Virus record (IMG/VR): IMGVR_UViG_3300046820_001896
Strand: one strand, 5' to 3'
From: a virus
Lineage: Duplodnaviria; Heunggongvirae; Uroviricota; Caudoviricetes
Length of the DNA: 64,000 nt
Part shown: positions 4,201-29,011 of the stretch, piece by piece
How the letters are laid out: every line of letters starts with the position of its first letter
How positions within the stretch are numbered: the stretch's first letter is position 1
Position numbers and translations under genes: made by a program
The notes under the pieces: model-generated
What the model saw: the letters and a program-made list of their open reading frames with translations, nothing else
What the model was told of the DNA's origin: nothing
Databases searched by the model: none

Positions 4201-4224
4201 ATAACCTATACTTAAGGAATAATA

Positions 4225-14312: not shown

Positions 14313-14316
14313 GCAT

Positions 14317-14344
14317 GTACAAACAAGAAAAAGTGTGGTATAAT
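14317..14344 (+). promoter_or_regulatory. sigma70-like promoter of the catgtaca...gtgtggtataat family
   Basis: tgtaca at 14317-14322, 16-nt spacer, tataat at 14339-14344, ending 5 nt before ATG 14350. Confidence 0.55.
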
Positions 14345-14349
14345 TAATC

Positions 14350-14508
14350 ATGACAAAACGAAAGGTAACTCGCAAAGCAAATCCGATAGCGAAAGATTTG
14401 CGTACACCGAAGTACCGCATGCGTGTTGTCAAAAGCAAGAAAGCTTACACACGTAAGCAACGTAGTGAAATCATTAACATTGAAATGGAGTTAAATCATG
14501 GGTCGTAA
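14350..14508 (+). CDS. ArfA-like alternative ribosome-rescue factor homolog (52 aa, very basic), possibly translated from a leaderless mRNA
   Basis: Hand-translated MTKRKVTRKANPIAKDLRTPKYRMRVVKSKKAYTRKQRSEIINIEMELNHGS. The core resembles the E. coli ArfA segment [28 protein letters not shown], recalled from memory. The ORF is below the track cutoff. Confidence 0.4.
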   Translation: MTKRKVTRKANPIAKDLRTPKYRMRVVKSKKAYTRKQRSEIINIEMELNHGS

Positions 14509-14983
14509 AGCACGTGTTTATCAAGCAGAATTTGTTCAAAAGTTCGAAGACAAGTTCTATTCAGAATTCCCTCAAGTAAAGAGTGGTGGTACATTCCTTT
14601 GGAAAGATGCAGTTAAAGTCATGCGTCAACTTGGTTTGAATCCACGTAACGGTAACGAATATCCGTTTTACTTCTTTACTAACAAAGTTTCGAAAGGCGT
14701 TTACAAAATGCCAACGAAACCAGCATTGATCGCTGGTACACCTGCAGCAACTGCAGCAAGCATCGTTAAATCGAAGCAACCAAAGGTAGCGAAGACGCCT
14801 AAAGCGACAGTAGCTCGCGTGTCCGCACCGAAAGTCACCACAGCTGTGACACGTATTAAGAAGTCAGATAAGTCCGATTCAGATATCGGCACTGGTGGAT
14901 TCGACAACGATGTATCATTCGATGACGTAGCATCTCTGCGCGGCGAATTTGGTCTCGGCGAATTCCGTAACACACTAGACTAA
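14498..14983 (+). CDS. hypothetical protein (161 aa), Ala/Lys-rich centre
   Basis: RBS ggag precedes the ATG. Confidence 0.55.
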   Translation: MGRKARVYQAEFVQKFEDKFYSEFPQVKSGGTFLWKDAVKVMRQLGLNPRNGNEYPFYFFTNKVSKGVYKMPTKPALIAGTPAATAASIVKSKQPKVAKTPKATVARVSAPKVTTAVTRIKKSDKSDSDIGTGGFDNDVSFDDVASLRGEFGLGEFRNTLD

Positions 14984-15070
14984 GCTCCTTTCCTTTCGCT
15001 TAGACTGACCACCACATTCGGGAGAATCTGGCTATATAGGTCGCCGCATTAGAGTAAGCGGCTCCATTTA

Positions 15071-15259
15071 TTGAAAGGCTATATGATTAGACTTTGGTTG
15101 GCATTTTTCGTAATATTTTTTCTGTTTTATGTTGGTATTCCTACATTCCATAAACTCACTGGTCGTGAGAAGTGGGCTGTAACGAAGATCGCATTGTACA
15201 GTTTTGTGTGCTCTTTGCTTGCAATCGGCGCAATGATTTTGATCGTGATTTTATTTTAA
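15071..15259 (+). CDS. small membrane protein (62 aa)
   Basis: Two hydrophobic helices. Confidence 0.4.
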   Translation: MKGYMIRLWLAFFVIFFLFYVGIPTFHKLTGREKWAVTKIALYSFVCSLLAIGAMILIVILF

Positions 15260-15277
15260 GGATTTATATGAAGACAT

Positions 15278-16065
15278 CTATGAAACTCTTGGCTATCGCA
15301 ATGGCCGTCGCTGCACTCCCAGCATGTACACGTATTGAGACTGGCGAAGTCGGTGTACGAGTTGGTTTCGATAAACAAGTTCAACAAGGCGAACTCTTGC
15401 CTGGTTCGTTCAATCAAGTGTTGATTGGTGATGTGCTTACATTCCCAATCAAAGATGTGAACGTTAAGCTCGAAGATATGACACCTGTTGCAAAAGACAA
15501 TAGCACAATGAAAGACTTCGATGCTGTTGTAATCTATAACATCAATCAAGCACAAGTCGCTGAGCTCTATAGCCAAAAGAGTCAAGCATTCCACGCTCGT
15601 CATAACGGCGACATCTATCTGATGTACAACTATATCGTTCAAACTACTCGTAATGCTATTTACAAAGAAGCACGTAAATACGAAGCATTAGACATGGCTG
15701 ACAATCGTCAAGCAATGGAACAAGCAATCAAAGAACAGATCCAGAAATCACTCGCTGAAGAAAAGCTTGATGGTAGTTTGATGATCGGTCAAGTGTTGAT
15801 TCGTAACATCGTTCCTGCTGATTCAGTCGTTGAGAGTGCAAACGCATTGGTTCGTGCAAAGAACGAACTAAAGCAAAAAGAAGTTGAAGTGCGTACAGCT
15901 AAAATGGAAGCTGAACGTATGCAAGCATTGTCCAATCAAGGTGCAAGTTCTATCGCATACATGAATGCTCAAGCTGCATTGAACATCTCTGAAGGTATTA
16001 AGAACGGTAAAGTGCAAACCATCGTTGTACCTAGCAACATGACTGGCTTGATGATTGGAAAATGA
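15278..16065 (+). CDS. SPFH/band-7 domain lipoprotein
   Basis: Lipobox LPAC after a signal peptide, and an SPFH-like N-terminus ETGEVGVRVGF. The listed ORF start 15172 is an upstream extension. RBS aaggattt. Confidence 0.6.
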
Positions 16066-16310
16066 TGATTATTAATAAAGATACACTCCGCAAAGAACTT
16101 AAAGAAGGTGTGAAAACGATCACCTTCACTAAGACTGATGGCACTCAACGTGTATTGAAGTGCACTCTACAAGAATTTGTGTTGCCACAAGTAGATGCTA
16201 CTAAATTAGTAACTGCCAAAAAGCAGAACGATGAAGCACTTGCAGTGTGGGACATTGAGAACGCAGGGTGGAGATCATTTAGGTATGATTCAATCATCAG
16301 CGTCGTATAA
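16062..16310 (+). CDS. hypothetical protein (82 aa)
   Basis: ORF with ATGA overlap of the upstream gene. Confidence 0.4.
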   Translation: MMIINKDTLRKELKEGVKTITFTKTDGTQRVLKCTLQEFVLPQVDATKLVTAKKQNDEALAVWDIENAGWRSFRYDSIISVV

Positions 16311-17046
16311 AGCTTTTGTCATTCATAAAGAAGATCAAGAGATAAGCAGTAAACTTGCTCAGGCTTGTGTAAACACGGGTAAAAAATTTGGTATACATGT
16401 TGAGAAGGTCAATGGACTATATCAACAAACTGCACAAGAATTTTTAGCTCATCACAACCTAAGACCTTATTTAGAGAATGGCAAAGAGACTCTACTAACA
16501 AAACAATTCCCACGAAAGGGTGTTTTGGCGAGTCATTATATGATGTGGTTGAAGTGTGCAGAGTTGGACGAACCAATCATCATCTTAGAACATGATGCTT
16601 TCTTTGTTCGACCTCTGCCAGAGGTTCATGGAAAGTTTACAGACTTTCTATCGCTTGATCCTCACACGAATGATCCTACTCAAGACACAGCTGAGTCACG
16701 TGCCACTTTCATAATGAATCCTAAATTATATGGAGAAAAAGTTATGAAAGATGGACCACAGACGATCGAACGTTTCTATGGTTATGGTAATTATACAGAT
16801 GAAATTAACTTCGAGCAGTTGAGGAATAGGTTCATTCGTGGTTCTCATGGATATATCATTACACCTGATGCATGTAAAAAACTTTTTAAAGTGATTGAAG
16901 AAATTGGTTATGTTACTAGTGATGTACAACTCAATTCATTATTCATAGAGATGTACATACTACAACCAAACGTAGTGCGAGTTAATGATTTTTTCTGCAA
17001 TACTTTTAATCATCAACGATATTCACATTGTAGTACCACAGTATAA
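16288..17046 (+). CDS. glycosyltransferase family 25-like protein
   Basis: Motif SHYMMWLKCAELDEPIIILEHDAFF resembles the GT25 signature (..SH..W......ILEDD). The start was chosen at the internal ATG carrying RBS ggag. Confidence 0.4.
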   Translation: MQSSASYKAFVIHKEDQEISSKLAQACVNTGKKFGIHVEKVNGLYQQTAQEFLAHHNLRPYLENGKETLLTKQFPRKGVLASHYMMWLKCAELDEPIIILEHDAFFVRPLPEVHGKFTDFLSLDPHTNDPTQDTAESRATFIMNPKLYGEKVMKDGPQTIERFYGYGNYTDEINFEQLRNRFIRGSHGYIITPDACKKLFKVIEEIGYVTSDVQLNSLFIEMYILQPNVVRVNDFFCNTFNHQRYSHCSTTV

Positions 17047-17049
17047 GCA

Positions 17050-17078
17050 TGTACTGCAGGAAATTAATGTGGTATAAT
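17050..17078 (+). promoter_or_regulatory. sigma70-like promoter (catgtact...aatgtggtataat)
   Basis: tgtact at 17050-17055, 17-nt spacer, tataat at 17073-17078. CDS begins at 17098 with RBS gaggag. Confidence 0.55.
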
Positions 17079-17097
17079 AATACAATGAGGAGAAAAT

Positions 17098-18294
17098 ATG
17101 GCAACAGTAAAGATTAATGGTAAGGCTTTCAAGCCACCAAAAAAGCGTATCACAAACCCATTGATGGTTGATGAGAAGTACACTGGAGAGGAACCGATCT
17201 TTGCTGGTGTCGAATTCAAAGACGAGACTCATCGCAAAGTCTCGTTAATGAGAGCTTTTAATTATTACAACTACTTCAATAGCGGTAAACACTTTAAGAA
17301 AGACTTGATTAAATATGCTAAAGACGAACTTAAATTCAGTAAAGACAAGCTTGAATTGTTGGATAGCTCGCCTGATTGGACTGCTGAACTACAATCTGGA
17401 GCTCTTTTGCGTATGCGTAGTCGCGGTCTTGTTCTTCGCGATGCAGAGTTTAAATACATAAACAACGTTCTCGAAAAAATGATGCTTGCGACTACACGCA
17501 AGATCAAAGAAGATGCTGTTGAAGATGCAAAAGATGCAGCAAACGGTCATGTTAAACGTGAAGTCATATCAGTACAAGAACGTCTTCGAATGAAAGTGGA
17601 TGCAACTGTATTAGGCGATCTCGAAGACATGCTCGATCAATGGATTATGGGAGAATCACCATTCATTGATGTATACGAAGCAATGAAAGCAGCCATTTTA
17701 CCTGCAATGGCATCTAAACATATCATTGATTGGTCTCAAAGGCATCTTGTGGAGATTCAAGGTGCTATAAATAAGACAGATCCTCAGTTAGTTGAGGGTT
17801 ATTCTCATCTTACATTAAAACGTAAGAAAGAATTTGCATCATGGTTCGAGGGTATTATTGCAGATGCTCAGCGTTTTGGTACTAACACTAAGACTGTCCG
17901 CAAAGCCCGTACGAAAAAACCTGTATCTCTCGAGAAACAAGTCTCGAAGCTCAAATACTTGAAGGAGTCGCCCGAGCATAAATTAGTTTCGATCAATCCG
18001 TCTCTGATAATCGGTGCCACAGAGTTGTGGACTTACAATGTTAAGTACAAATCTCTAACGCGCTATATCGCTGAGTCAGGTCTTGGGTTTGAAATCAAGG
18101 GCACTTCCCTTATCAAGTTTAATACTTCCGAATCCCAAACACGTACACTACGTAAGCCTGAAGAAACGTTATCAGAGGTGCTGTCGTCTTCAAAAACGAA
18201 AGCAGCCAAACTTTTTGCTTCACTTACTACGAAGCCTAAAGAACCAAATGGACGGATCAACGAAGATACGATCATTTTAAAGGTAACTAAATGA
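17098..18294 (+). CDS. hypothetical protein (398 aa)
   Basis: Strong RBS gaggagaaaat. Confidence 0.6.
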   Translation: MATVKINGKAFKPPKKRITNPLMVDEKYTGEEPIFAGVEFKDETHRKVSLMRAFNYYNYFNSGKHFKKDLIKYAKDELKFSKDKLELLDSSPDWTAELQSGALLRMRSRGLVLRDAEFKYINNVLEKMMLATTRKIKEDAVEDAKDAANGHVKREVISVQERLRMKVDATVLGDLEDMLDQWIMGESPFIDVYEAMKAAILPAMASKHIIDWSQRHLVEIQGAINKTDPQLVEGYSHLTLKRKKEFASWFEGIIADAQRFGTNTKTVRKARTKKPVSLEKQVSKLKYLKESPEHKLVSINPSLIIGATELWTYNVKYKSLTRYIAESGLGFEIKGTSLIKFNTSESQTRTLRKPEETLSEVLSSSKTKAAKLFASLTTKPKEPNGRINEDTIILKVTK

Positions 18295-18821
18295 CAGAAA
18301 TATTAATCGCGATCACTACATGGATATCGGCGTTGGTAAACCCGATTCCATTAAATGAGCAAGATGTATATTGTCTAACACGTAACGCATACTACGAAGC
18401 GAAAGGGGATTCGCAGATGTCACAGATCGCTGTGACACACGTAGTTTTAAATCGCATGAAAGATCCAGGTTTTCCTAAGAGTGCCTGCGATGTAGTCTAT
18501 CAAAAGACTAAACACGAAGCAAAGACTACATGTCAGTTTTCGTGGACATGCGATCGCCGATTAATGGGTCAACTTGCACCGCAAGAATCCGATATTTGGC
18601 AAGATTCTTTAGAATCAGTTCGTCAAGCACTAAAGATGTATTATCATCGCAATGTTGACGTAACACAAGGATCTACATTTTATCATGCGCACTATGTCAA
18701 TCCACAATGGAGAGGCGTAGAACGAGTAACAACAATTGGTAGCCACATATATTATAAGGTAAATGAAAAATGTCAGAACAACCAGAAGGCATGTTCACAA
18801 AAAAGTCGTTCAGCGATTTAG
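18291..18821 (+). CDS. SleB-like cell-wall hydrolase family protein
   Basis: CLTRNAYYEAKGDSQMSQIAVTHVVLNRM ... SACDVVYQ ... QFSW matches the Hydrolase_2 (SleB) pattern. Confidence 0.6.
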   Translation: MTEILIAITTWISALVNPIPLNEQDVYCLTRNAYYEAKGDSQMSQIAVTHVVLNRMKDPGFPKSACDVVYQKTKHEAKTTCQFSWTCDRRLMGQLAPQESDIWQDSLESVRQALKMYYHRNVDVTQGSTFYHAHYVNPQWRGVERVTTIGSHIYYKVNEKCQNNQKACSQKSRSAI

Positions 18822-19006
18822 TTCAAGAACGAGTTAAGAAGGATCGATCAACATACCTCGATGCAATCATGGATATTTGCAAAGAGCGTATGTTAGATCC
18901 AGAAGACGTGGCAAAAATGTTGAGTAATCCTATTAAAGCCAAACTCGAGGCTGAAGGGATGAATCTTGGTTATTTAAAGAAAAAGAATGAGTTACAGTTC
19001 GATTGA
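18770..19006 (+). CDS. hypothetical small protein
   Basis: ORF overlapping the 3' end of the upstream gene. The true start is uncertain. Confidence 0.3.
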   Translation: MSEQPEGMFTKKSFSDLVQERVKKDRSTYLDAIMDICKERMLDPEDVAKMLSNPIKAKLEAEGMNLGYLKKKNELQFD

Positions 19007-19607
19007 TGGCTTCACAGCATACCAAAAGTATATTGCAATTAAGTTGCACTTTGAATCAAAGACGTATGACTATTTCAAATACAATGGTAAATCGAGCGTA
19101 ACTCCTAAATCATTCTTTGCTCGTAGAGATAAGTACTTCTTTGCGAAACTAGTGAGGACGTATGGCATCGACGAGTTACCATACTTTTTTGCTTGTAACT
19201 TTGCACATCATGGTACGAAGTGGGTTGGTGGATTAACTGACGATCAAGCTGATGAGACGTATAAGTCTTATAAAAGTTTGTTAGAAAGTTTCACATATCG
19301 CTTCAAAAATGATATAGATAAAATTATATCGGTGAACGACTTCAAAAGTTTGTTTGTGGTAGAGGATGGACAACATCCTAAACTCGTTAAGATGTTAATT
19401 CAAAACGAGATACCACTCGAGACCTTTGTTGTCCTTAATCGATACATAGACTTCATGCCGAAGTTCGACAAAGAGATAACAGATCCCATCATGTGGCCTG
19501 ATATCTCGCTGAAGATCAGAAAGTATGATAAGTTTATTTCGGTGAATAACAAAAAAGTCGCAGAGGCGTTAAAAGATTGTTTACAATCGAATGCCGTTGT
19601 GGTATAA
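18987..19607 (+). CDS. gp59-like helicase loader
   Basis: RRDKYFFAKL and ETFVVLNRYIDFM correspond to T4 gp59 RRDKYFFQKL and ETFILLDSFLNII. It sits immediately upstream of the gp32-like gene, as in T4. Confidence 0.7.
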   Translation: MSYSSIDGFTAYQKYIAIKLHFESKTYDYFKYNGKSSVTPKSFFARRDKYFFAKLVRTYGIDELPYFFACNFAHHGTKWVGGLTDDQADETYKSYKSLLESFTYRFKNDIDKIISVNDFKSLFVVEDGQHPKLVKMLIQNEIPLETFVVLNRYIDFMPKFDKEITDPIMWPDISLKIRKYDKFISVNNKKVAEALKDCLQSNAVVV

Positions 19608-19608
19608 T
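19581..19608 (+). promoter_or_regulatory. sigma70-like promoter (ttacaa ... ttgtggtataat)
   Basis: ttacaa at 19581-19586, 16-nt spacer, tgtggtataat with tataat at 19603-19608. Confidence 0.5.
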
Positions 19609-19653
19609 AGTTATTCCATACAATGTTAAACACTGCTATATAAGGAACATAAT

Positions 19654-20550
19654 ATGTCATTAGCAAATCTCAAAGCAAATCGCGTTTCAGCGATCAACAA
19701 ACTAGTTGCAGCAGCCGAAAAAGTCGGCGGTGGTCAGCAACAATCTTTCGAAGACAATCGCATGTGGAAACCTGAGGTCGACAAAGCTGGTAACGGTTTT
19801 GCGGTCATTCGTTTCTTGCCAGCACCCGAAGGTGATGATTATCCATGGACTCGTTATTGGGACCACGGTTTTCAAGGTCCTGGTGGTTGGTACATCGAAA
19901 AGTCTTTGACTTCCATCGGTGGTCAAGATCCAGTTTCTGAAATCAACTCTAAACTATGGAATAGTGGTTTAGAATCTGATAAGGATATCGCACGTAAACA
20001 GAAGCGTCGTCTTCACTACGTATCGAACATCCTCGTTGTTTCAGATCCAGCTCATCCCGAAAATGAAGGTAAAGTATTCCTCTTCCAATATGGTAAGAAG
20101 ATCTATGACAAGATGATGGATGTTATGCAACCACAATTCCAAGACGAAACACCGGTTAATCCTTTCGATCTATGGGAAGGTGCAAACTTTAAGTTGAAGA
20201 TTCGCAACGTTGAAGGTTATCGTAACTATGACAAATCAGAGTTCGATAAGCAAAGCGCTGTTGCAAATGGCGATGAAGAAGAACTTGAAGCAATCTATTC
20301 TAAGTGCTACTCACTCAAAGAGTTCACTGATCCTAAGACTTACAAAACTTATGATGAATTGAAAGCAAAGCTCGAGCGTGTATTGGGTGGTTCCGCACCA
20401 CGTACTACTGCTGAGTCCATCACTCTTGATGAATCAGCTACTGCACCATCAGTTGGTAAGACTAAGTTCGCACCAGTTGAAGCATCAGATGACGAAGCAG
20501 GTGACGACGAAACTTTGTCATACTTCTCACGTCTAGCTAAAGAAGCTTAA
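19654..20550 (+). CDS. gp32-like single-stranded DNA-binding protein
   Basis: GNGFAVIRFLP, HGF, WYIE, NILVV.DPA.PENEGKVF....GKKI.DK and PWEGANF all align with T4 gp32 motifs. Acidic C-terminal tail. Confidence 0.85.
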   Translation: MSLANLKANRVSAINKLVAAAEKVGGGQQQSFEDNRMWKPEVDKAGNGFAVIRFLPAPEGDDYPWTRYWDHGFQGPGGWYIEKSLTSIGGQDPVSEINSKLWNSGLESDKDIARKQKRRLHYVSNILVVSDPAHPENEGKVFLFQYGKKIYDKMMDVMQPQFQDETPVNPFDLWEGANFKLKIRNVEGYRNYDKSEFDKQSAVANGDEEELEAIYSKCYSLKEFTDPKTYKTYDELKAKLERVLGGSAPRTTAESITLDESATAPSVGKTKFAPVEASDDEAGDDETLSYFSRLAKEA

Positions 20551-20555
20551 TTGAG

Positions 20556-20586
20556 TTATGGGTGGGGGAAACTCCACCCATTTTAT
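20556..20586 (+). terminator. rho-independent terminator after the gp32-like gene
   Basis: gggtggg-ggaaact-ccaccc followed by attttat. Confidence 0.5.
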
Positions 20587-20589
20587 ACT

Positions 20590-21003
20590 ATGAATGAACA
20601 CGACGAATTTTTCCCCTTCGAAATCAACCACGATATGATTATGCGCGCCGATATGATGACGTGCACACATGACTGTGTCCGTATGATTCAGAAGAACGAA
20701 TACCTAACTGTAGGTGAATACTTACAGAGCATTACAACAAGTCAACTCGACGAGATGCTAGATGTTGCAGAGAATGAAGACAATCCAAAGATGGAGGAAT
20801 TCCTTCTTATTGCAGAGATGCTAGCACGAGCAGAAGGTTTAGAAGGATCAGAGGATTTTGATGTACTTCATAAACGACTAAATATTTTCCTTGCATTGAT
20901 TGCAATTGAGAGTCTCTATCGTAGAGGTATGATTAGAATCTATCGCGAGAATATGTCATTCGGCGATGATATGAATACGAAGAAAATAGCAGAGAAGTTG
21001 TAA
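20590..21003 (+). CDS. hypothetical protein
   Basis: The listed start 20551 lies inside the terminator hairpin. The next in-frame ATG at 20590 is used. Confidence 0.45.
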   Translation: MNEHDEFFPFEINHDMIMRADMMTCTHDCVRMIQKNEYLTVGEYLQSITTSQLDEMLDVAENEDNPKMEEFLLIAEMLARAEGLEGSEDFDVLHKRLNIFLALIAIESLYRRGMIRIYRENMSFGDDMNTKKIAEKL

Positions 21004-21318
21004 ATGGCTGGTGTTTACAAGCAAAAAGAATGTAAGCAGTGCGGAGAGGTTCACAGAAAACGTGGACCTTTTTGCTCTCAAGCTTGTTCTAATTCTTTTC
21101 GTGAAGTAGGCATAAAGACAAAGCTATTGCATTCTCATAATGCTAAAGAATGGAAGAAAACACCCGAAGGTGTAGCGAGTACAAAGAAGTTTGCGCGTGA
21201 TATTGAGACTCATAAGAAGAATGAGGAACGTAGAGCAAACGGTGAATATGTATTACAAGAAGATGATTGGTATGTGCTACCACCATCTGATTATGATGAC
21301 GATGGTATTGAACTATGA
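21004..21318 (+). CDS. zinc-ribbon protein
   Basis: CKQCGEVH...CSQAC provides four Cys. Confidence 0.5.
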   Translation: MAGVYKQKECKQCGEVHRKRGPFCSQACSNSFREVGIKTKLLHSHNAKEWKKTPEGVASTKKFARDIETHKKNEERRANGEYVLQEDDWYVLPPSDYDDDGIEL

Positions 21319-21509
21319 CAAACAGAGATAAACAAAAAGCAAGATGTGAGTTGATGGTTGAAGCATTAGTTGGTAAAGAAATGGCACCAAAATGGTGGGC
21401 ATCTCCAAATAAAGCATTTAAAGATCAAACACCATTCGTTGCTTTTGAATTAAATTCAGATGAAGTGCATGATTATTTGGCATGGCATTGTTACGGAGGA
21501 TTCGCATAA
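21315..21509 (+). CDS. hypothetical small protein
   Basis: ORF with ATGA overlap of the upstream gene. Confidence 0.4.
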   Translation: MTNRDKQKARCELMVEALVGKEMAPKWWASPNKAFKDQTPFVAFELNSDEVHDYLAWHCYGGFA

Positions 21510-21669
21510 TGGTACCATGGATTGATGTGATTAATTTTTTAGGATTTAACATCTCATACGTAAAAAGTGATCGTATGTGGAATTGGGGTTTCCACATAGG
21601 ATGGGCATATAAACGATTTAATATTTCGTTAAATATAAATCCCACAATTAAAGATGATTATGGGTTGTC

Positions 21670-21921
21670 ATGATGTATGTAATAGCAGGAACTTATGAAG
21701 AATATAATAATTTCATAAAAGGTAGAAATTACAACACTAGTGAATATAAGTATGTTACCAACGCAAATAGTTTGCGAGGTGTGACAGATCCCCATGGTTT
21801 TTTTGTGGGAACTTGGGAGAAAAGACTCGATCGTGATGATATTCTCTCTCAATTGTGGATGTGTACACGTACACGAAATCCTTTACTCGACGATATCATC
21901 GAAGAAGTCGATAAAGGTTAA
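21670..21921 (+). CDS. hypothetical small protein
   Basis: ORF only. Confidence 0.35.
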   Translation: MMYVIAGTYEEYNNFIKGRNYNTSEYKYVTNANSLRGVTDPHGFFVGTWEKRLDRDDILSQLWMCTRTRNPLLDDIIEEVDKG

Positions 21922-21936
21922 TTAAAGGAAATAAAA

Positions 21937-22518
21937 ATGAATGTATATATTTTGTTAGATCGTAGTGGCTCAATGCAAACCATGTGGGGAGAAGCATTAG
22001 GTTCAATCAATGGTTATGTTAAGAAGTTAAACAAAAAAGATAAAGTGCACTTAGCCGTATTTGATAGCGTATCGCATGATGTAGTACGTGATTGCACAGT
22101 TGAGAAGTGGAAAGATATCAACACTGAAGAAGTATCTCCAAGAGGTGGTACACCATTATATGACTCATGCGGCAAAGTCATGTCATTGGCTGAAGAAGCA
22201 GACGCACGTAAAACATTAATGGTTGTAATGACTGATGGATTTGAGAACGCATCACATGAGTATACACAAGCAGCGATCAAAGCTAAAGTAGAATCATGGA
22301 CTGATAAGAAATGGGAAGTAGTATTCCTTGGTGCAAACTTTGATGCAGTTGAATCCGTATCGAACTCTATCGGTGTAGTTGGTTCTAAGACATTGAACTA
22401 TGGTGTCGGTAATTTTGCTCGCGGTATGGATACATTGATGGCATCTACTATGGCATACGCTAGTGGTGCATCAATCAACTTTAGCGACGCAGATAAGCAA
22501 GCAGCAGCAGGAAAATAA
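21937..22518 (+). CDS. von Willebrand factor A (vWA) domain protein
   Basis: MIDAS motif LLDRSGSM ... GGTPL ... MTDG. RBS aaaggaaat. Confidence 0.7.
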   Translation: MNVYILLDRSGSMQTMWGEALGSINGYVKKLNKKDKVHLAVFDSVSHDVVRDCTVEKWKDINTEEVSPRGGTPLYDSCGKVMSLAEEADARKTLMVVMTDGFENASHEYTQAAIKAKVESWTDKKWEVVFLGANFDAVESVSNSIGVVGSKTLNYGVGNFARGMDTLMASTMAYASGASINFSDADKQAAAGK

Positions 22519-22538
22519 CTCGCAACGCAATTACATGC

Positions 22539-22563
22539 AGCCACCTTCGGGTGGCTTTTTTAT
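22539..22563 (+). terminator. rho-independent terminator
   Basis: agccacc-ttcg-ggtggct followed by TTTTTTT. Confidence 0.8.
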
Positions 22564-22566
22564 TGG

Positions 22567-22595
22567 TGTACAGCAGAGAATAAATGTGGTATAAT
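22567..22595 (+). promoter_or_regulatory. sigma70-like promoter (tgtaca ... aatgtggtataat)
   Basis: tgtaca at 22567-22572, 17-nt spacer, tataat at 22590-22595. Confidence 0.55.
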
Positions 22596-22626
22596 ATACC
22601 CATAACTGCAATTTTTAAGGATTACA

Positions 22627-22938
22627 ATGAGTGAATATACACCCGATCGATGGGTTTTGGTTGAATTGACTGTCACAGAGACAGGTGAGACACACACGAA
22701 AGTGTTTGCTGGTTGGTACGGCGGATACGGTGGTGCAGACTCATGGAAATTATCTTCGGGTGTTGTGAACACTGAAGATCGTGATGACTATTATGAATTC
22801 ACCAATCATAGTGGATCTGTCTATCGATGCTATAAGAATGCACAAGGAATGGGTGCATATATGAGTAGCGTTTACAGCGGTTTCCAACGTGATGCTGAGA
22901 AGACCGGTAAGTTTACCATGAATGTATTGAACATGTAA
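22627..22938 (+). CDS. hypothetical protein
   Basis: RBS taagga precedes the ATG. Confidence 0.5.
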   Translation: MSEYTPDRWVLVELTVTETGETHTKVFAGWYGGYGGADSWKLSSGVVNTEDRDDYYEFTNHSGSVYRCYKNAQGMGAYMSSVYSGFQRDAEKTGKFTMNVLNM

Positions 22939-22939
22939 T

Positions 22940-23221
22940 ATGTTGACACTATTTAAAACTGTTACAGAAGATGAAGCACGACCAGTGCCTCAAGAATCTC
23001 TTGATGAGATACTCATAGAACTATTAAATTATGGACAACCACGAATTGGTGTCTATGGTAGTGATATGAAATGGCATTGTAACGTTGAAATGAATACTAA
23101 CACAATCGGATCAGATTTTAAAGTACGTTCAGAATGGAATCATGCAACTCCGATTGAAGCAGCAAAAATATGCAGAGATCGTGTAGTGAAAGCAGTAGCA
23201 ATCTATAAGGAAATCAAATGA
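22940..23221 (+). CDS. hypothetical protein
   Basis: Tightly packed ORF. Confidence 0.45.
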   Translation: MLTLFKTVTEDEARPVPQESLDEILIELLNYGQPRIGVYGSDMKWHCNVEMNTNTIGSDFKVRSEWNHATPIEAAKICRDRVVKAVAIYKEIK

Positions 23222-23469
23222 TTTTAGATTATGAGAATCGTATCTATCTGAGCAAGCGCAACTTGCTGACCCTTCTATCCAAACTCGAGCGATTCGAGAA
23301 AGGTGAGGAGACTAAGTGTACGATCATTAAGAATGCCAATCCATTAGATCCATATTGTCAAACCATTGACGAGATCGCAGTCATTGCCATTCCCGATGAA
23401 CACTACTATACAAAGAGAAGTGCTGGACCTATGCACCCATCAGATGAAGCAAACATTAAAGGTAAGTGA
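23218..23469 (+). CDS. hypothetical protein
   Basis: ATGA overlap. Confidence 0.45.
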   Translation: MILDYENRIYLSKRNLLTLLSKLERFEKGEETKCTIIKNANPLDPYCQTIDEIAVIAIPDEHYYTKRSAGPMHPSDEANIKGK

Positions 23470-23813
23470 TGTTACAATACTCTGAAGAATACGATGCGTA
23501 TTATGACGACCAAACCAATGAATGGGTTGATAGTCGGTGTTGTGATCCCGCATGTGAATATTGTAGCAATAGACCAAAGAAACCTATGCATGAGACAAAC
23601 ACTGACAATCCTATTGATTTCCCACCTGTAAAGAATGATCTCGTATATCGGCTAAACAAACGAGCTGAGATTCGCCGTCAAATCACCACACGAAAATCAG
23701 TACAGGAAGGTGCACCTGATAGGATTGCAGACCTATTAGAGGAAGCAGCACAGAGGATCGCCATCCTCGAGAAGAACATTGCTATGATGAAGGAAGAAAA
23801 CAATGGAAAATGA
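23466..23813 (+). CDS. hypothetical protein with CDPACEYC motif
   Basis: ATGA overlap. Confidence 0.45.
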   Translation: MMLQYSEEYDAYYDDQTNEWVDSRCCDPACEYCSNRPKKPMHETNTDNPIDFPPVKNDLVYRLNKRAEIRRQITTRKSVQEGAPDRIADLLEEAAQRIAILEKNIAMMKEENNGK

Positions 23814-24138
23814 ATGTAAGCGCGAATTGAATTGGTGGGAACACTACCCACTACATCAACTATGGTGCAATGATCTGTGCCCACTAGTCCCACGATTCTC
23901 ATATCGACCTAAGGATGAATGGAATGCCGCAGATGTGAGTGTGCATTGGCTTATTTTCCACGTATGGACACTCAGTCATGTAAGCATTCAATTTGACCTT
24001 GAAATCTCCCCATCCTGTATCGGGTTCGGTGCCATCCTTCCGTATCTTCGTGTGTTTGTTGGTCCTCGTCATATGCATGGACCAATCGGCCAGTTTTTCT
24101 ATAAGTACCTCACACGTAAAGGAACCTCAAGATGGTAA
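23803..24138 (+). CDS. hypothetical protein (Trp/His-rich)
   Basis: ORF only. Confidence 0.4.
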   Translation: MENECKRELNWWEHYPLHQLWCNDLCPLVPRFSYRPKDEWNAADVSVHWLIFHVWTLSHVSIQFDLEISPSCIGFGAILPYLRVFVGPRHMHGPIGQFFYKYLTRKGTSRW

Positions 24139-24332
24139 AATCATTCCTTCATACAGAAGACATAGATCGCATCAAGGCACTGATGGAAGCCATTGATTAT
24201 GATGGTAACTTTGAGATCGAGATCGATGAATCCTCAGGCATAGGAAGGACAGTCATTGTACATGTACCATATTCAGTCAATTCATTGCGTGGTACATTTT
24301 CTTATATTATTTCAAATGTGGAGAACTGGTAA
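24132..24332 (+). CDS. hypothetical small protein
   Basis: ORF only. Confidence 0.4.
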   Translation: MVKSFLHTEDIDRIKALMEAIDYDGNFEIEIDESSGIGRTVIVHVPYSVNSLRGTFSYIISNVENW

Positions 24333-24841
24333 TGAGTAACTATGAAAAACATGCATTGATGGAATTCCGTGCTGCAGGATGGATAGATGAGAATGGTAAT
24401 TATATCGATGAGATGCAAGAGATGATTTGTCGTCATGTACTTGCATTACTTGATGTATTCGATGGTGAGGGACATAGTGGATCCTCTGCACCGTATGCTA
24501 TCAATTTATTCTCCAAACTTGCTAAGTTTGATCCTGTTGTGCCATTGACTGGTGAAGATTGGGAATGGACTGAGGTAAGCGAACGAATGGGTAGCAAGTG
24601 TTGGCAAAACAAACGATGCGGTAAGGTGTTCAAGGATGAGGATGGACGAGCATACGATATCGATGGGAAAGTTTTTTGGGAATGGAGTGGTACGAAGGAA
24701 GATCCATATAAGTCGCACTACACATGCCGAGAATCTCGTGTGTATGTCACCTTCCCATATACTCCATCGACTGAGTATGTGTATCGATACTCTGATGCCA
24801 CTCCACCTGCCCCACCACAAACAGAGCAAGGGTTACTATGA
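24332..24841 (+). CDS. hypothetical protein
   Basis: ORF; GC content visibly higher than the window average. Confidence 0.45.
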   Translation: MSNYEKHALMEFRAAGWIDENGNYIDEMQEMICRHVLALLDVFDGEGHSGSSAPYAINLFSKLAKFDPVVPLTGEDWEWTEVSERMGSKCWQNKRCGKVFKDEDGRAYDIDGKVFWEWSGTKEDPYKSHYTCRESRVYVTFPYTPSTEYVYRYSDATPPAPPQTEQGLL

Positions 24842-25294
24842 GCATAAGTTATGTAACCATTATGGTTGTAATATGGATGAACTCCGCGGGCCCTCAGATC
24901 ACAGTCACAGAGGTCAGTTCAGCATCTAATTGTTATGAGGCAAAAATGCAGATCGAGGCCTATGGCAAAAAGTTTAGGAAAGACTGGGATGTCAACGTAT
25001 TATGCATCAAGAAGTAAAGAAGTGGTGTAATCGGTGTCAGAGGTACCACGATGCCAAACCGGTCGATCCACAAAAAATCATAGAACAACATGCCATGGAT
25101 CTTGCCAAACACATAGATCGTATGGTCATAGAGGAACTAAAGAATGAAAAATGACGCAATATTCTATGGATCAATTGTAGCTATGTTTGCATTCATGACA
25201 GGTAGTCCATTCATTGCACTAACGATCTTCCTCCTCTCCCTCTTGGCATCATAATAATAGTCTATCGTTTTGCATGTAATACTATCTTCCTACA

Positions 25295-25322
25295 TGTACA
25301 AACTCACCCATTGTGATAGAAT
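25295..25322 (+). promoter_or_regulatory. sigma70-like promoter (catgtaca ... ttgtgatagaat)
   Basis: tgtaca at 25295-25300, 16-nt spacer, tagaat at 25317-25322. CDS begins at 25356. Confidence 0.45.
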
Positions 25323-25355
25323 AGGTTCTAACAGATTAAGAAAAGGACTAAGAAA

Positions 25356-25541
25356 ATGTACGGATACCTGCAAAGCTCATATGAACAAGACTTGGAAGTA
25401 GTCAAAGCCAAACTCGCCGAGGAAGGCATTCTCCACTACACAACATATAAGGCTAATCACTGTGTTGGTGTAAATTATGGTCGAGTCAGTGCATATTATA
25501 TTGTTCGTAATGGTAAGGTTGTAGATGTCCAAATCGATTGA
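25356..25541 (+). CDS. hypothetical small protein
   Basis: RBS aaaagga. Confidence 0.4.
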   Translation: MYGYLQSSYEQDLEVVKAKLAEEGILHYTTYKANHCVGVNYGRVSAYYIVRNGKVVDVQID

Positions 25542-25607
25542 AAATTTCCTCGCTAAACTCGCCTCTGATAAAGAGATCATGAACGTATTGAAAAGAATGG
25601 CTAATAA

Positions 25608-25850
25608 ATGAATACTAAGACTCGCACCCTCTACTCCCTCGAACTCGACATTTGCTCAGAATACCCAACCTCTGAACTCGATCAGGACATGTCAAACTAT
25701 GGATTAGTAGCTGAACTCATCGATCCAAATGGACCAGGAGGAGGCAATCCAGTCTACAAATTCTCATCATATAATAAGGACGACCTTCTCGCCTTCGCCG
25801 AGGTATGTGGATATGATGATGCAGAGGAATACCTCGAGGAAACAGTATGA
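25608..25850 (+). CDS. hypothetical acidic protein
   Basis: ORF only. Confidence 0.4.
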   Translation: MNTKTRTLYSLELDICSEYPTSELDQDMSNYGLVAELIDPNGPGGGNPVYKFSSYNKDDLLAFAEVCGYDDAEEYLEETV

Positions 25851-26010
25851 ACAAAATAGAATACGATAACACCACCTCTCTTACCCATTTCATGGACCTA
25901 TTCACTATCAATAGATTAGAGAGAACGATCTACTTTGAGGAGAACTGCACTCCCCAAAACACCGAACTCATTAATTCATGTAAAGTAGTAGTAGAACATC
26001 TAAAAGCTGT

Positions 26011-26238
26011 ATGGGGGATCAAGTAATGGATGCAGCACTAAAAGTAGTCTTCGCAGCATTGATCATCACGTTCATTGGCTTCTTCGTGTATGTCATCCCA
26101 TTAGACATGGATAGGACAAAAAGAGCAGAACAATTAGCCACAGAGATGGGATGTACGTATATCGGTAATGCAAGGGATTTAAACTCGGTCAAGTTCTTCC
26201 AGTGCGGTGAGAATATAGTACTAAGGAGAGTGAAATGA
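26011..26238 (+). CDS. small membrane protein
   Basis: One TM helix. Confidence 0.35.
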   Translation: MGDQVMDAALKVVFAALIITFIGFFVYVIPLDMDRTKRAEQLATEMGCTYIGNARDLNSVKFFQCGENIVLRRVK

Positions 26239-26352
26239 CAGACTTCGAACAAGATTGCCTCCATCATTATGGGAAGATCCTCATAGGCAAGTACAAACAT
26301 TATTGCTGTGAATGGGATTTCTTACCCATAGACGAAACATGTCAAGAATTCT

Positions 26353-26556
26353 TTGCATGCACATGCTTTGATGATAAGGAATCTAATGTCAGATAGAAAG
26401 AACAGAGACATAGGCAACAAAAGAGAACATCAAAAGAATAAGCCACAATGTGATTGTTGGTTATGTCGAGAAGGTAAGACAAAAAAGCGTGTCATAAGGG
26501 ATAAGGACATAAGAAAGGAACTCGGTTATGCAAGAATCGGACTCAATAACATATAA
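26353..26556 (+). CDS. small basic protein with CDCWLC motif
   Basis: ORF only. Confidence 0.3.
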   Translation: MHAHALMIRNLMSDRKNRDIGNKREHQKNKPQCDCWLCREGKTKKRVIRDKDIRKELGYARIGLNNI

Positions 26557-26719
26557 GTGTATAGAATGTGGTAATGATGCCACATGGATTAGATCAACAC
26601 AATTTGCAGGGGATCATCCATTTTGTGAGGAACATGCAAAGCAAGAGGAAGGATTTGGTATAAACGACTCATATGAGTATTGGTACCAGATAGAAACAAA
26701 GGTTCTAGGTAGCAACTGA
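26528..26719 (+). CDS. small zinc-ribbon protein (CIECG ... CEEH)
   Basis: ORF with Cys pairs. Confidence 0.35.
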   Translation: MQESDSITYKCIECGNDATWIRSTQFAGDHPFCEEHAKQEEGFGINDSYEYWYQIETKVLGSN

Positions 26720-26854
26720 AGCTCGCTCCCATGCCATCCTGTGAAATAAAGGGATTAAATGAGTAGTCCCCAGAGCCAAGAAGACCCGTGTAAGCCAATG
26801 ATCTGTATAGACAAATAATACTGTACTGAAACGGTAGACTACTCAAATAAACAT

Positions 26855-26882
26855 GTACAAGGGGCTGTGGGTGTGGTATTAT
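26855..26882 (+). promoter_or_regulatory. sigma70-like promoter (catgtaca ... gtgtggtattat)
   Basis: tgtaca at 26855-26860, 16-nt spacer, tattat at 26877-26882. CDS begins at 26916. Confidence 0.5.
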
Positions 26883-26915
26883 CTATCCATAGATTGAATA
26901 ACATAAGGATAGTAA

Positions 26916-27839
26916 ATGACTCAAGTTTCTGTAATGATCGCCTTTGACAAGGCTGCTGGCAAGTTCAAGTGTTCTATTAATGGTCAGAAGTTTACCACGA
27001 CCAAACAGTCTTACATCGAATACATGTTCAAGCAAATCACTGGTCAAAAGCGTACATTCAAAGACATCGAGGCAATGCAAAAAGCCACTGTTGAGAAGTT
27101 TGGCATCAACGAACGATTTGGTTTCGTGGAGAAGATCGTAGGCATGGTCGCCACTGGCATCCAGCCATCTACAGTGATCACCGGTCAAGGTGGTTTGGGC
27201 AAGACATACACTGTCATGAAGACTCTCAAGGCTTCTGGTCTCCAAGACTACAATGAATTAATCCAACGTTTGCCTTCTGGCTCTACGATCCAAATGTCTA
27301 AGGTGTATGTCACTGTCAAAGGTTACTCTACTCCTAAGGGTTTGTACCGTACTCTGTTCGAGAATCAGAATGCAACCATTGTGTTCGATGACTGTGATTC
27401 TATCCTCAAAGACCCTGTTGCCCTTAACTTGCTCAAAGGTGCTTTGGACTCCTATGGCAAGCGCATCATCTCTTGGAATGCAGAGTCCTTTGGCAAGGAC
27501 GACGAGTTGCCACGTAGCTTCGAGTTCAAAGGTCGTGTAGTGTTCATCTCTAACATGGACCAAGACAAGATTGACCAGGCAATCCGTAGTCGTTCTATGA
27601 TGATTGACTTGTCCATGACAGACGATCAGAAAATCGACCGTATGGCTCACATTGCAGACAGCGAAGAATTCATGCCAGAATACGACGCTAAAGTCAAGTC
27701 CGATTCACTTGCTCTGATCCGCGAAGTTAAAGACGATGCTAAAGAAATCAGTCTCCGTACTTTGATCAGTGTTTGTAAGATCCGCGCAGCTAACCCTGTG
27801 GACTACAAAGACCTCGCAACTTACATCTTGACTAACTAA
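26916..27839 (+). CDS. AAA+ / P-loop ATPase (RFC clamp-loader-like core with about 90-aa N-terminal extension)
   Basis: Walker A GQGGLGKT, Walker B IVFDDCD, sensor-1 VVFISN, and SRS at the RFC-box SRC position. Confidence 0.65.
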   Translation: MTQVSVMIAFDKAAGKFKCSINGQKFTTTKQSYIEYMFKQITGQKRTFKDIEAMQKATVEKFGINERFGFVEKIVGMVATGIQPSTVITGQGGLGKTYTVMKTLKASGLQDYNELIQRLPSGSTIQMSKVYVTVKGYSTPKGLYRTLFENQNATIVFDDCDSILKDPVALNLLKGALDSYGKRIISWNAESFGKDDELPRSFEFKGRVVFISNMDQDKIDQAIRSRSMMIDLSMTDDQKIDRMAHIADSEEFMPEYDAKVKSDSLALIREVKDDAKEISLRTLISVCKIRAANPVDYKDLATYILTN

Positions 27840-28000
27840 TTGGGAGTTTTTATGTTGACAGACAAAGAGATATGCGACCTCAGGGATGAGATCCAGATCA
27901 TGATTATTCAGAAGGTCCAGGAGAGACTCGATCCGAACTTGTCTATTGATGAATGTGTCGAGCAGACAGACGAGATCATGGACTTTATTAAGGAGATGAT

Positions 28001-28195
28001 GTGAAGCTGTTCAGGGAGACGACTAAGGATTGGCAGCAGCCTACCCCCAATCATGCCTATGTACTGTCAGATGACAAACAGTGGATGTATGGGTATGTCA
28101 AGGCTGGTACACGGGACCTGATCACCCTCTCCAAGAGGATTAGGTTTGATGCCAGGTACAGGACATTTGTAGCATTAAAGAAAGGACAAATATGA
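28001..28195 (+). CDS. hypothetical small protein
   Basis: ORF that belongs to a chain of 45-65-aa ORFs (27852-28520) coupled through ATGA overlaps. Confidence 0.35.
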   Translation: MKLFRETTKDWQQPTPNHAYVLSDDKQWMYGYVKAGTRDLITLSKRIRFDARYRTFVALKKGQI

Positions 28196-28325
28196 AACTA
28201 TTCAATGCAGTGACAGACATGATCCAGGCACGGATGTACATGTGTCTATTAGGAGTAATCATTGTTGTGGTAGGGATGCTCTCCCCACAATTAGCGCTTA
28301 AGTGTGTACAGACAGGAGTCAACAG

Positions 28326-28520
28326 ATGAAGAAATACACAGCATCCACCAGATGGACACAACCGTATCATTACATCACCGGATGGAGAAAACGTCAGACC
28401 ATCAATAGAGTATTAGATGATCTACATACACAGCAACTAGACTTCATTGATGCAGCAGTAGATCAGTCAGATTTGTCAGATGCAAAGACAATCATTGCTC
28501 ATATCATGCAGAAACAATAG
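28326..28520 (+). CDS. hypothetical small protein
   Basis: Internal ATG 28326 overlaps the preceding stop. Last gene before the terminator. Confidence 0.35.
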   Translation: MKKYTASTRWTQPYHYITGWRKRQTINRVLDDLHTQQLDFIDAAVDQSDLSDAKTIIAHIMQKQ

Positions 28521-28531
28521 TATACAGGCAG

Positions 28532-28565
28532 GGGTACCTATAGGAAACTAAGGTACCCTTTTATT
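28532..28565 (+). terminator. rho-independent terminator
   Basis: gggtacc-(13 nt)-ggtaccc followed by TTTTATT. Confidence 0.55.
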
Positions 28566-28569
28566 AAGG

Positions 28570-28980
28570 TTCCATATTAATAGGAGACCATCTATAAGTT
28601 ACATACTCGGTTAAACCGTTGTCGTCCGTCACAAAGACAAAAAATAAAAAATTCCCCCCATGGGCAGAATATCCCCAGGATGTCAGTCCCTTCCAAGGAT
28701 GAACAGTAACCAATTATCTTTTTCCAGATAATTACAGATAATTCGCCATAGAAAAATTCCCCCCAGGGTTTATCCCTTCTCCTGGGGGTAATACTGTATC
28801 CAAGAGATTAATACTATACAACCTTCACATTGTTCCCCCCTTAGGTTGTTTGTTTCTCATGATACAGAATGTATCCCATTGTATACAGAATACTGCAGTT
28901 TGTATACTATAAGAAACAATATTGTATCATTAATGAGTCCCTAAGCTACTTAATGACTACTATATGATCCATTACAATAC
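28570..28980. repeat. long non-coding region with three ttcccccc motifs, duplicated agataatt and atacagaat units
   Basis: No credible ORF. Repeats seen by eye at 28652, 28757 and 28833. Confidence 0.5.
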
Positions 28981-28982
28981 CA

Positions 28983-29011
28983 TGTACAACAATATATTTC
29001 TATGGTATAAT
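28983..29011 (+). promoter_or_regulatory. sigma70-like promoter (catgtaca ... tatggtataat)
   Basis: tgtaca at 28983-28988, 17-nt spacer, tataat at 29006-29011. Confidence 0.5.

Follow-up and report, generated by a model that had tools for sequence, protein, structure and literature searches.

Gene content of the interval downstream of gp32

We analysed a 64,000-nucleotide stretch of phage DNA (IMG/VR record IMGVR_UViG_3300046820_001896; the whole stretch is called the window, and coordinates refer to it unless another contig is named), with emphasis on the segment 23200–28520, a dense array of small genes that includes a gene of the Tad3 family and a gene for an AAA+ ATPase. Since T4 core genes are matched in the window and in related contigs, we assign the window to an uncultured T4-like myovirus. 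The core genes, named from PHROG and Pfam matches, include gp32, gp59 and gp6 (Table 1), and other tail and baseplate proteins are matched in the same way; the gene calls of close metagenomic relatives add gp2, gp4-like, gp19-like, gp48, gp53, gp5 and the gp51/baseplate family. Long co-oriented gene arrays run through the window, 12 tRNA genes lie at its left end (53–2891), and a close relative is found on a 246-kb contig. A megablast search of the segment against 50,697 GenBank phages gave no nucleotide match.

The segment forms the central part of a hyperplastic region that extends from the end of gp32 (20550) to a leftward tail/baseplate module (~29.4 kb). It is probably an early accessory region that combines a Tad3 gene as cargo, shuffled micro-genes, a conserved ATPase of the T4 NrdC.10 family and a GC content at third codon positions (GC3) that is raised across the whole gene class. 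The region represents a new instance of known things, namely a T4-type hyperplastic early region, a Tad3 member and an NrdC.10 ATPase, and not a new system.

Coding sequence makes up 95% of the segment, with 20 small open reading frames (ORFs) of 36–169 aa and the 307-aa ATPase all on the + strand. In the array counted from 22627, neighbouring genes overlap at 15 of 21 junctions (−1 to −29 nt, mostly as ATGA), and a Shine-Dalgarno-like motif lies upstream of 18 of 22 starts. The initial annotation, made from the sequence without database searches, had described the segment as filled with micro-ORFs, and this description holds. For 14 of the 20 small ORFs, related contigs encode homologous proteins (55–100% amino-acid identity, often at other positions), and we therefore regard these ORFs as real genes.

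Searches of every small ORF against Pfam and PHROGs identified only Tad3, all other matches being sub-threshold noise (NepR, PRP38, phrog_38473). NCBIfam and PADLOC gave no match, and a PDB sequence search with ORFs 23466 and 23803 returned nothing meaningful. Single-pass membrane peptides are predicted at 25144–25254, 26011–26238 and 28192–28329, and charge is extreme in 26386–26556 (very basic) and in 25608–25850 and 27852–28004 (both very acidic). The initial annotation had also listed several CxxC pairs and zinc ribbons, which our analysis does not support: the CxxC motif occurs in four ORFs only, with one copy each, and we found neither a domain with the two CxxC or CxxC/CxxH knuckles of a zinc ribbon nor a Pfam zinc-ribbon match among the ORFs. 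The closest approach is 26528–26719, which has a CxxC...CxxH arrangement and could be the sole small zinc-binding module of the array. Two further ORFs, 23466–23813 and 26235–26396, are rich in cysteine (Table 1).

The Tad3-family protein and the adjacent ORF X

The 169-aa ORF at 24332–24841 matches Pfam family PF25185 ('Type I Thoeris inhibitor Tad3') with 124.4 bits (cutoff 27, E 2.7e-36), residues 2–122 covering model positions 1–114 of 119. With phmmer it matches the Tad3 chain of the ThsB–Tad3 complex (PDB 9b7d_B) at E 1.7e-9, and a profile of 21 Tad3 homologues improves this to E 5.9e-16, with residues 7–160 aligned on 6–159. The protein is assigned the three-dimensional fold of the 9b7d Tad3. 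Its top metagenomic homologues all carry PF25185. Characterised Tad3 (PF25185; 9b7d; Yirmiya et al., Cell 2025) is homologous over its full length, of similar size (194 aa) and, like the protein described here, phage-encoded, patchy in distribution and situated among small early genes; the present protein, a predicted inhibitor, differs in being only ~30% identical.

According to PMC13402655 (citing Yirmiya et al. 2025), Tad3–Tad6 bind ThsB directly by inserting a loop into the active site of its TIR domain, and a second surface of ThsB is covered by Tad3 as well; PMC13243611 (citing the same work) describes TIR domains or Thoeris effectors as the binding targets of Tad3–Tad8. Judged from its homology to Tad3 in the crystallised ThsB–Tad3 complex, the protein of this phage would most likely bind the ThsB TIR protein of the host. 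ThsB bound in this way would stop making the gcADPR alarm signal, and the ThsA NADase would never be triggered. The initial annotation had suggested host-takeover or anti-defence functions for the array; this suggestion finds one recognisable family member in the predicted Tad3, whereas the other small ORFs gave no assignment.

Tad3 homologues are numerous in metagenomes (3625 matches), and the 41 GenBank phage records that contain one represent widely differing kinds of phage. Among the relatives of the window, Tad3 is present in contigs L009, L010 and L011 (92% identity) and in L019 (71%), and was not found in the examined sequence of L001, L003 and L005. Another T4-like lineage has the gene between gp47 and gp46. 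Such a patchy distribution is the behaviour expected of anti-defence cargo. The locus places a Tad3-type inhibitor in a fixed, promoter-delimited slot, between gp32 and the NrdC.10 ATPase, of widespread environmental T4-like phages, which makes the ORFans beside it plausible candidates for additional antagonists of immunity.

One of these candidates is X, an orphan ORF rich in tryptophan, histidine and cysteine that adjoins Tad3 in the window. X has the invariant motif WWEHYPLHxxWCND...PR...R. Sequence and profile searches detected no Pfam, PHROG, NCBIfam, PADLOC or PDB relative, and X has no match in GenBank phages, its homologues being confined to metagenomes. X adjoins Tad3 also in L009 and L019 and in four further homologue contexts, selected solely for the length of their contigs, in which the flanking genes are unrelated and both gene orders are seen (Table 1). 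This first, small sample (7/7 lineages) had suggested a near-universal linkage, which proved overstated in a larger one of 80 IMG/VR loci with X and 80 with Tad3, loci that are not phylogenetically independent. Tad3 lies within 4 kb of X in 46 of the 80 X loci, always co-oriented, on either side of X and in unrelated surroundings. The gap between the two genes has a median of 132 nt, and 36 of 45 measured gaps do not exceed 600 nt. Tad3 is by far the commonest neighbour family of X; the next is found in 29 loci. Seen from the Tad3 side, X is present in 17/80 loci, usually directly adjacent, and is narrowly the top neighbour family (15 loci, against 13 for several others). None of the 41 Tad3-bearing GenBank phage records has X, whereas Tad3 is accompanied by X here and in many relatives.

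We tentatively suggest, as a possibility with the odds clearly against it, that X acts in partnership with Tad3 or travels with it as a second antagonist of immunity. Among the conceivable activities of X are binding of the Thoeris signal, binding of ThsA and modulation of Tad3 itself. The recurrent pairing provides one concrete, cheaply testable candidate of modest novelty.

The NrdC.10-family ATPase and the transcription signals of the region

The ATPase (26916–27839) matches phrog_1250, a family of unknown function, with E 7.7e-63 over residues 9–305. It aligns with T4 NrdC.10 (NP_049708) with 99.4% probability in hhalign (E 3e-21, 226 columns) and with 28% identity over 255 aa in BLASTP. 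The RFC/clamp-loader-like core proposed by the initial annotation does not extend beyond the generic AAA+ fold: hhalign gives T4 gp44 a probability of 1.5%, which does not support orthology, a clamp-loader PHROG is matched weakly (E 0.0044), and Pfam returns only a sub-threshold AAA_22. No gp62-like partner was found beside the ATPase, the downstream ORFs being 45–64 aa long and without a Pfam or PHROG clamp-loader match, although a genuine gp62 (Phage_clamp_A) can be detected in L021, a further T4-like contig. Orthology to gp44 with gp62 next to it, the finding that the initial annotation itself had named as one that would speak against its proposal, is therefore absent. What the ATPase shares with the T4 gp44/gp62 clamp loader is the AAA+ fold, Walker A and B and an S-R-x arginine motif; it differs in lacking a detectable sequence relationship and a gp62 neighbour.

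Homologues occur in 1304 GenBank phage records (tblastn), mostly of T4-likes, in which they are annotated nrdC.10. The family comprises more than 6800 matches in 90% clusters and 3966 representatives at 50% identity, and its members nearly always stand alone at 280–340 aa. We considered domain fusions as a guide to function and dismissed them, the few long members (813–972 aa) being apparent tandem P-loop repeats without an informative extra domain. The conserved core spans profile positions 55–308. The N-terminal ~55 residues vary between subfamilies and are conserved within the present one, and they align with NrdC.10 of Acinetobacter and Aeromonas phages from residue ~11. What had been described as a novel 90-aa N-terminus is hence a domain common to the subfamily and to some T4-like NrdC.10 proteins.

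The motifs of the protein are Walker A GQGGLGKT, Walker B VFDDCD, sensor-1 N213, an SRS arginine motif and sensor-2 LRTL. In an alignment of 19 sequences, G90-G92-G93-L94-G95-K96-T97, F157-D158-D159-C160-D161, N213, R224/R226 and R281 are invariant. An AlphaFold2 model (pLDDT 80.6) has a canonical AAA+ domain and lid and a small beta-beta-beta-alpha N-domain. Strands 184–186 and 201–203, between helix alpha3 and the sensor-1 strand, resemble a pre-sensor-1 hairpin in this model; since they lie in a low-confidence stretch, we do not assign an AAA+ clade.

Compared with T4 NrdC.10, the ATPase has a homologous AAA+ core and lid and a similar length (307 aa; 325 aa in T4), and its gene likewise stands alone among early ORFs to which no function is assigned. 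It differs in its first ~60 residues, which do not align with T4, in its place in the gp32-to-tail interval (the T4 gene lies in the nrdC–mobD cluster beside the nrdC.11 nucleotidyltransferase) and in the unusually high GC3 of its subfamily. The family, with ~4000 diverged clusters and a member in T4 itself, has no assigned function, and the present lineage offers a conserved context and a clear predicted early promoter for its study.

The ATPase of the relatives is 99% identical in L001, 86% in L003, 80% in L005, 89% in L009/L010 and 86% in L019, and all of these share the order gp32, variable small genes, ATPase, few small genes, leftward tail genes. The ATPase is thus the conserved anchor of the region and not acquired cargo; because it holds the same position in five loci at 80–99% identity and has a high GC3 everywhere, it is the gene least likely to be a recent acquisition. 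We also considered a MoxR–VWA-type pairing of the ATPase with the upstream VWA protein (21937–22518) and rejected it as unsupported, since neither L001 nor L009, both of which retain the ATPase, has the VWA protein. Two antisense ORFs lie inside the ATPase gene (26883–27245 and 27258–27650, − strand, 120 and 130 aa) and are probably a by-product of its high GC3. As a separate observation, the ATPase small-gene array of the more distant relative L015 (positions 1–6843, − strand) abuts host-like genes for CHASE2/guanylate cyclase, CsgG, CsgF, FecR and a glycosyltransferase, which are either auxiliary genes of a large phage (the contig has 161 kb) or an assembly chimera.

A promoter motif, TGTACA-N13-14-TG(T/A)G(G/A)TATAAT, occurs seven times in the window (0.06 copies expected), and three of the six + strand copies bound or lie inside the hyperplastic region. 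The motif probably marks early transcription units of the whole genome. Its copy at 22567 (P1) is the likely start of a transcription unit that includes Tad3, and its copy at 26854 (P3) precedes the ATPase, as it does in L001 and L003. Together with a terminator hairpin at 28530–28560 (dG −17.9 kcal/mol, z −2.6, T-rich sequence after it), P3 bears out, as a predicted unit, the arrangement of promoter, ATPase, four small genes and terminator in the initial annotation. The last three of these small genes have homologues in L001 (73–91% identity), the 45-aa and last ones also in L019 and the last also in L009. As L003 and L005 carry other small genes after the ATPase, the predicted unit is not a conserved operon.

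The intrinsic-terminator-like stem-loop at 22539–22556 directly abuts P1, and an Rfam search over 21–30 kb gave a single sub-threshold match, to isrD, on this terminator. No convincing stem-loop lies beside the promoters at 25295 and 26854. The T4-type late-promoter sequence TATAAATA has eight copies in the window, of which seven are intergenic and directly upstream of genes, and none of the eight lies within 21–32 kb. Since sigma-70-like promoters act as early promoters in T4-type phages (PMC2839356), the segment is most likely transcribed early. The early expression proposed by the initial annotation is thus consistent with the promoter type and with the lack of TATAAATA motifs, the timing being read from motifs only. 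The TATAAATA sites ahead of gene starts are at 7316, 12835/12839 (a divergent pair), 34264, 43032, 59648 and 62351, the site at 34264 preceding the gp48 start at 34305; their total is not above chance, but their placement is striking.

Just after the terminator of the ATPase unit, a non-coding block of ~40 nt (28563–28603) is nearly invariant in L001, L003 and L019 while its flanks diverge. We rejected a minus-strand micro-gene, as the ORF is not conserved, and a structured RNA, as there is no covariation; the palindromic block may be a protein-binding or recombination site. Nearby, in a gene-poor stretch of 540 nt, three copies of TTCCCCCC(A/T) lie within 28640–28850, 105 and 76 nt apart and two of them after AAAAA; some form hairpins that can be read as minus-strand terminators.

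Table 1. Features of the gp32-to-tail interval and of related loci (window coordinates unless a contig is named)
Feature	Position	Strand	Remarks
gp59	18987–19607		PHROG/Pfam match
gp32 single-strand DNA-binding protein	19654–20550		PHROG/Pfam match
Intrinsic-terminator-like stem-loop	22539–22556	+	AGCCACCTTCGGGTGGCT + T-run; ends upstream VWA cassette
Promoter P1, early-type sigma-70	22567–22595	+	TGTACA-N14-TGTGGTATAAT
Two small ORFs, 103 and 93 aa	22627–23221	+	first genes of the P1 unit, left of the segment; conserved in some relatives
83-aa ORF	23218–23469	+	no family match, no homologue in retrieved loci
115-aa ORF	23466–23813	+	CCxxxCxxC cluster, helical C-terminus; 81% identical in L001
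ORF X, 111 aa	23803–24138	+	orphan family, 67 metagenomic clusters
66-aa ORF	24132–24332	+	start/stop overlap with Tad3 just downstream; conserved in L007, L009, L019, L001
Tad3-family protein, 169 aa	24332–24841	+	PF25185; predicted ThsB TIR inhibitor, type I Thoeris
Three overlapping micro-ORFs, 59/50/36 aa	24838–25254	+	50-aa: one CxxC; 36-aa: predicted single transmembrane helix
Weaker promoter variant	25295–25322	+	TGTACA-N16-TAGAAT, upstream TG
Seven small ORFs	25356–26719	+	61 aa, 80 aa (acidic), 59 aa, 75 aa (transmembrane), 53 aa (6 Cys), 56 aa (very basic, CxCxxC), 63 aa (CxxC...CxxH)
Promoter P3, early-type	26854–26882	+	TGTACA-N14-TGTGGTATTAT, upstream of ATPase
AAA+ ATPase, 307 aa, T4 NrdC.10 family	26916–27839	+	phrog_1250; PHROG + hhalign
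Four small ORFs after ATPase	27840–28520	+	50–54 aa (acidic), 64 aa (basic), 45 aa (transmembrane), 64 aa
Terminator hairpin	28530–28560	+	GGGGTACCT...AGGTACCCTT + T-run; closes ATPase unit
Conserved non-coding block	28563–28603		imperfect palindrome GGTTCCATATTAATAGGAGACC
Baseplate wedge gp6	40162–42090		PHROG/Pfam match
Promoter motif copies	1312, 4172, 14316, 22567, 26854, 28983	+	
Promoter motif copy	56496	−	
X loci in other contigs	L009 10671–11009; L019 8688–9068; L020 245–607		
X loci in other contigs	L021 6001–6348; L022 5001–5357; L025 5001–5357		

Mosaic gene content, base composition and competing explanations

Homology to the relative L001 is confined to 22567–22938, 23469–23808, 26708–27845 (93.7% nucleotide identity) and 28002–28477. 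The 2.9 kb between 23808 and 26708, with Tad3 and about ten other ORFs, are swapped for ~360 bp in L001, and 21673–22567 (an 83-aa ORF, a VWA-domain gene and a terminator) is absent from it. The cassette at 21672–22556 with the same three elements, including the VWA protein 21937–22518 (phrog_7371, Pfam VWA), is present in L019. The seven ORFs of 25356–26719 show patchy conservation and a shuffled order in relatives, and L009 has the same genes in a different order. One indel junction with L001 lies exactly at the −35 hexamer of promoter 22567, so that P1 coincides with a breakpoint of homology; the other junctions lie at gene boundaries, and no duplicated cassette flanks the indels examined.

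The gene content is thus mosaic among relatives and resembles the shuffling mediated by promoter early stem-loops (PeSLs) in the hyperplastic regions of T4-type phages (Arbiol et al. 2010, PMC2839356; Comeau et al. 2014, PMC4122927). As in those regions, a variable block of ORFans lies between core modules, strong sigma-70-like promoter motifs are repeated upstream of ORFans, a stem-loop is fused to a promoter at one site (22539–22595), and close relatives differ by indels with one junction exactly at a promoter. From this one junction we infer that recombination may have occurred at the terminator/promoter composite. The region differs from described PeSL systems in that it has one clear composite and no flanking duplicates, and in its motif (TGTACA as −35 and TGTGGTATAAT as −10), which is specific to this phage. 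A further parallel is the signalling-inhibitor hot spot of N4-like phages (Tad2, Tad3, Acb4, Sequestin; bioRxiv 10.64898/2026.06.04.730250), likewise a fixed interval that collects diverse small genes including Tad3; it belongs to another phage family with other boundary genes, and only one known inhibitor is recognisable in the region described here.

The segment has a GC content of 0.420, the maximum among all 5321-bp sliding windows of the 64-kb window (mean 0.373, standard deviation 0.0255). The GC profile is thus not uniform, and the segment is richer than its flanks, as the initial annotation had noticed, but the difference is modest. Since the adjacent 5.3 kb have 0.394 (left) and 0.383 (right) and 14.0–31.6 kb as a whole has 0.406, the excess is the crest of a broad plateau and no sharp island. 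The contrast is stronger at third codon positions than in raw GC: the median GC3 of the segment genes is 0.419, whereas genes at 13.3–23.2 kb have 0.359 (Mann-Whitney p 0.0014) and those of the late class at 34–64 kb have 0.189 (p 2.5e-9). The ATPase is the most GC-rich gene of the segment, and its GC3 of 0.536 is the top of all long ORFs (mean 0.255, standard deviation 0.086). The ATPase gene has a GC3 of 0.47–0.63 in all close relatives examined, at a locus GC of 0.36–0.41, and of 0.534 in the more distant L015, whereas T4 nrdC.10 (0.28) shows no enrichment. Small genes near the ATPase in L009 and L015 are likewise raised. Along the window, GC3 rises from ~0.19 in late structural genes (34000–64000) to 0.35–0.64 in early/accessory genes (13000–29000).

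The initial annotation had taken the shift in composition as a sign of horizontal acquisition. Because the richest gene, the ATPase, is stably inherited and GC3-rich in every relative, we have dropped this reading in favour of a raised GC, chiefly GC3, as a lineage-wide trait of the early/accessory gene class that carries no mark of recent transfer. The causes we consider, which do not exclude each other, are a codon usage of the expression class tied to the tRNA set of the phage and a shared pool of accessory genes of higher GC.

The model of a recently acquired foreign island, centred on an RFC/clamp-loader-like ATPase operon with a novel N-terminus, can draw on the GC maximum of the segment, the extreme GC3 of the ATPase and the weak clamp-loader PHROG match. 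It is largely refuted, and we regard it as improbable, given the single syntenic position of the ATPase in five loci with high identity and high GC3 in each, the contrast between the hhalign probabilities for gp44 and NrdC.10, the missing gp62-like partner, an N-terminus that the subfamily shares and that can also be aligned with Acinetobacter and Aeromonas phage proteins, and a left flank only 2.6 GC points lower. Still less credible, and in our view highly improbable, is the notion that many of the micro-ORFs are accidental reading frames within non-coding or regulatory sequence. In its favour, six ORFs (23218, 25144, 26011, 26386, 26528 and 27840) have no convincing Pfam or PHROGs match and, beyond the near-identical fragments L007 and L008, no homologue in the related loci retrieved. 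Their single strand, the coding density, the ATGA-type overlaps, the Shine-Dalgarno-like motifs and the conservation of the other 14 all speak against chance, and one of the six, 26528–26719, matches a homologue in the distant L015 at 61% identity.

The remaining alternatives are closer to our own explanation. Composition could reflect expression class and not origin, which we rate at slightly less than an even chance: early genes would keep host-like, GC3-richer codons read by the host tRNA pool, and late structural genes would take AT-ending codons served by the tRNA array of the phage. GC3 indeed follows a monotonic gradient (late 0.19, 1–9 kb 0.26, replication/early 0.35, accessory segment 0.44) that L009 and L015 repeat; sigma-70 promoters lie in the GC3-rich part, and TATAAATA late promoters precede GC3-poor genes. 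This gradient and the 12 phage tRNA genes at 53–2891 suggest a codon usage specific to expression class. On the other hand, the likeness to host codon usage is presumed, the nrdC.10 of T4 is not GC3-rich, and a gene pool shared among higher-GC phages would yield the identical pattern. The ATPase could also be an accessory factor of DNA replication or recombination (loader- or initiator-like) whose placement beside accessory genes is incidental. Its position downstream of gp59 and gp32 in this lineage, the DD Walker B and S-R-S arginine motif, which in the alignment recall initiator and clamp-loader clades, and the name 'Cdc6-like' given to some members by JGI favour this; however, the T4 and Aeromonas phage gene is found among nonessential early ORFs (nrdC.x cluster, near asiA), outside the replication module, and in L015 the ATPase is embedded in a long micro-ORF array. 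We judge a replication role unlikely, though not negligible. That the ATPase is itself a host-takeover or anti-defence motor is less likely than a coupling of X with Tad3.

Several points weigh against the explanation as an early accessory region as well. Besides the six ORFs without homologues, the ATPase lacks a functional annotation, with no Pfam match above threshold and no NCBIfam, PADLOC or PDB-sequence match, and in L015 it adjoins neither gp32 nor tail genes. A Foldseek search with the Tad3 model, which is of moderate confidence (pLDDT 71), did not retrieve 9b7d, and the function and target of Tad3 in the host of this phage, including its ThsB-contacting loops, are predictions. Promoter class and timing are likewise deduced solely from consensus motifs.

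In the early accessory region that we nevertheless favour, host RNA polymerase would transcribe the genes early from the strong, phage-wide sigma-70-type promoters with their extended −10 element, starting at 22567, 26854 and, more weakly, 25295, with hairpin terminators at 22539 and 28530 as bounds. The products would include Tad3 and ~19 other micro-genes, tightly packed, translationally coupled and without assigned function, several of which are predicted to span the membrane or are cysteine-rich. The set of micro-genes differs between close relatives, in which genes have been gained, lost or reordered like cassettes, with gene and promoter boundaries as the points of exchange. The ATPase, which has kin across T4-like and other large phages, is vertically conserved at its position in all five gp32-to-tail loci examined and might act, as a guess at its role, as an ATP-driven remodeller or switch early in infection. 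For the composition, our results show that a class of genes may by itself account for a shift of GC within a phage genome, without any need to invoke recent transfer.

Two minor features of the window lie outside this region. The baseplate/tail module contains an ORF of 2118 aa (44410–50766), with a radical-SAM-domain protein (phrog_1802) downstream at 52524–53957. The tRNA-Ile gene with anticodon TAT (1207–1301) has a called length of 95 nt, which exceeds that of the other tRNAs by ~20 nt, and may contain an intron or be an odd call.

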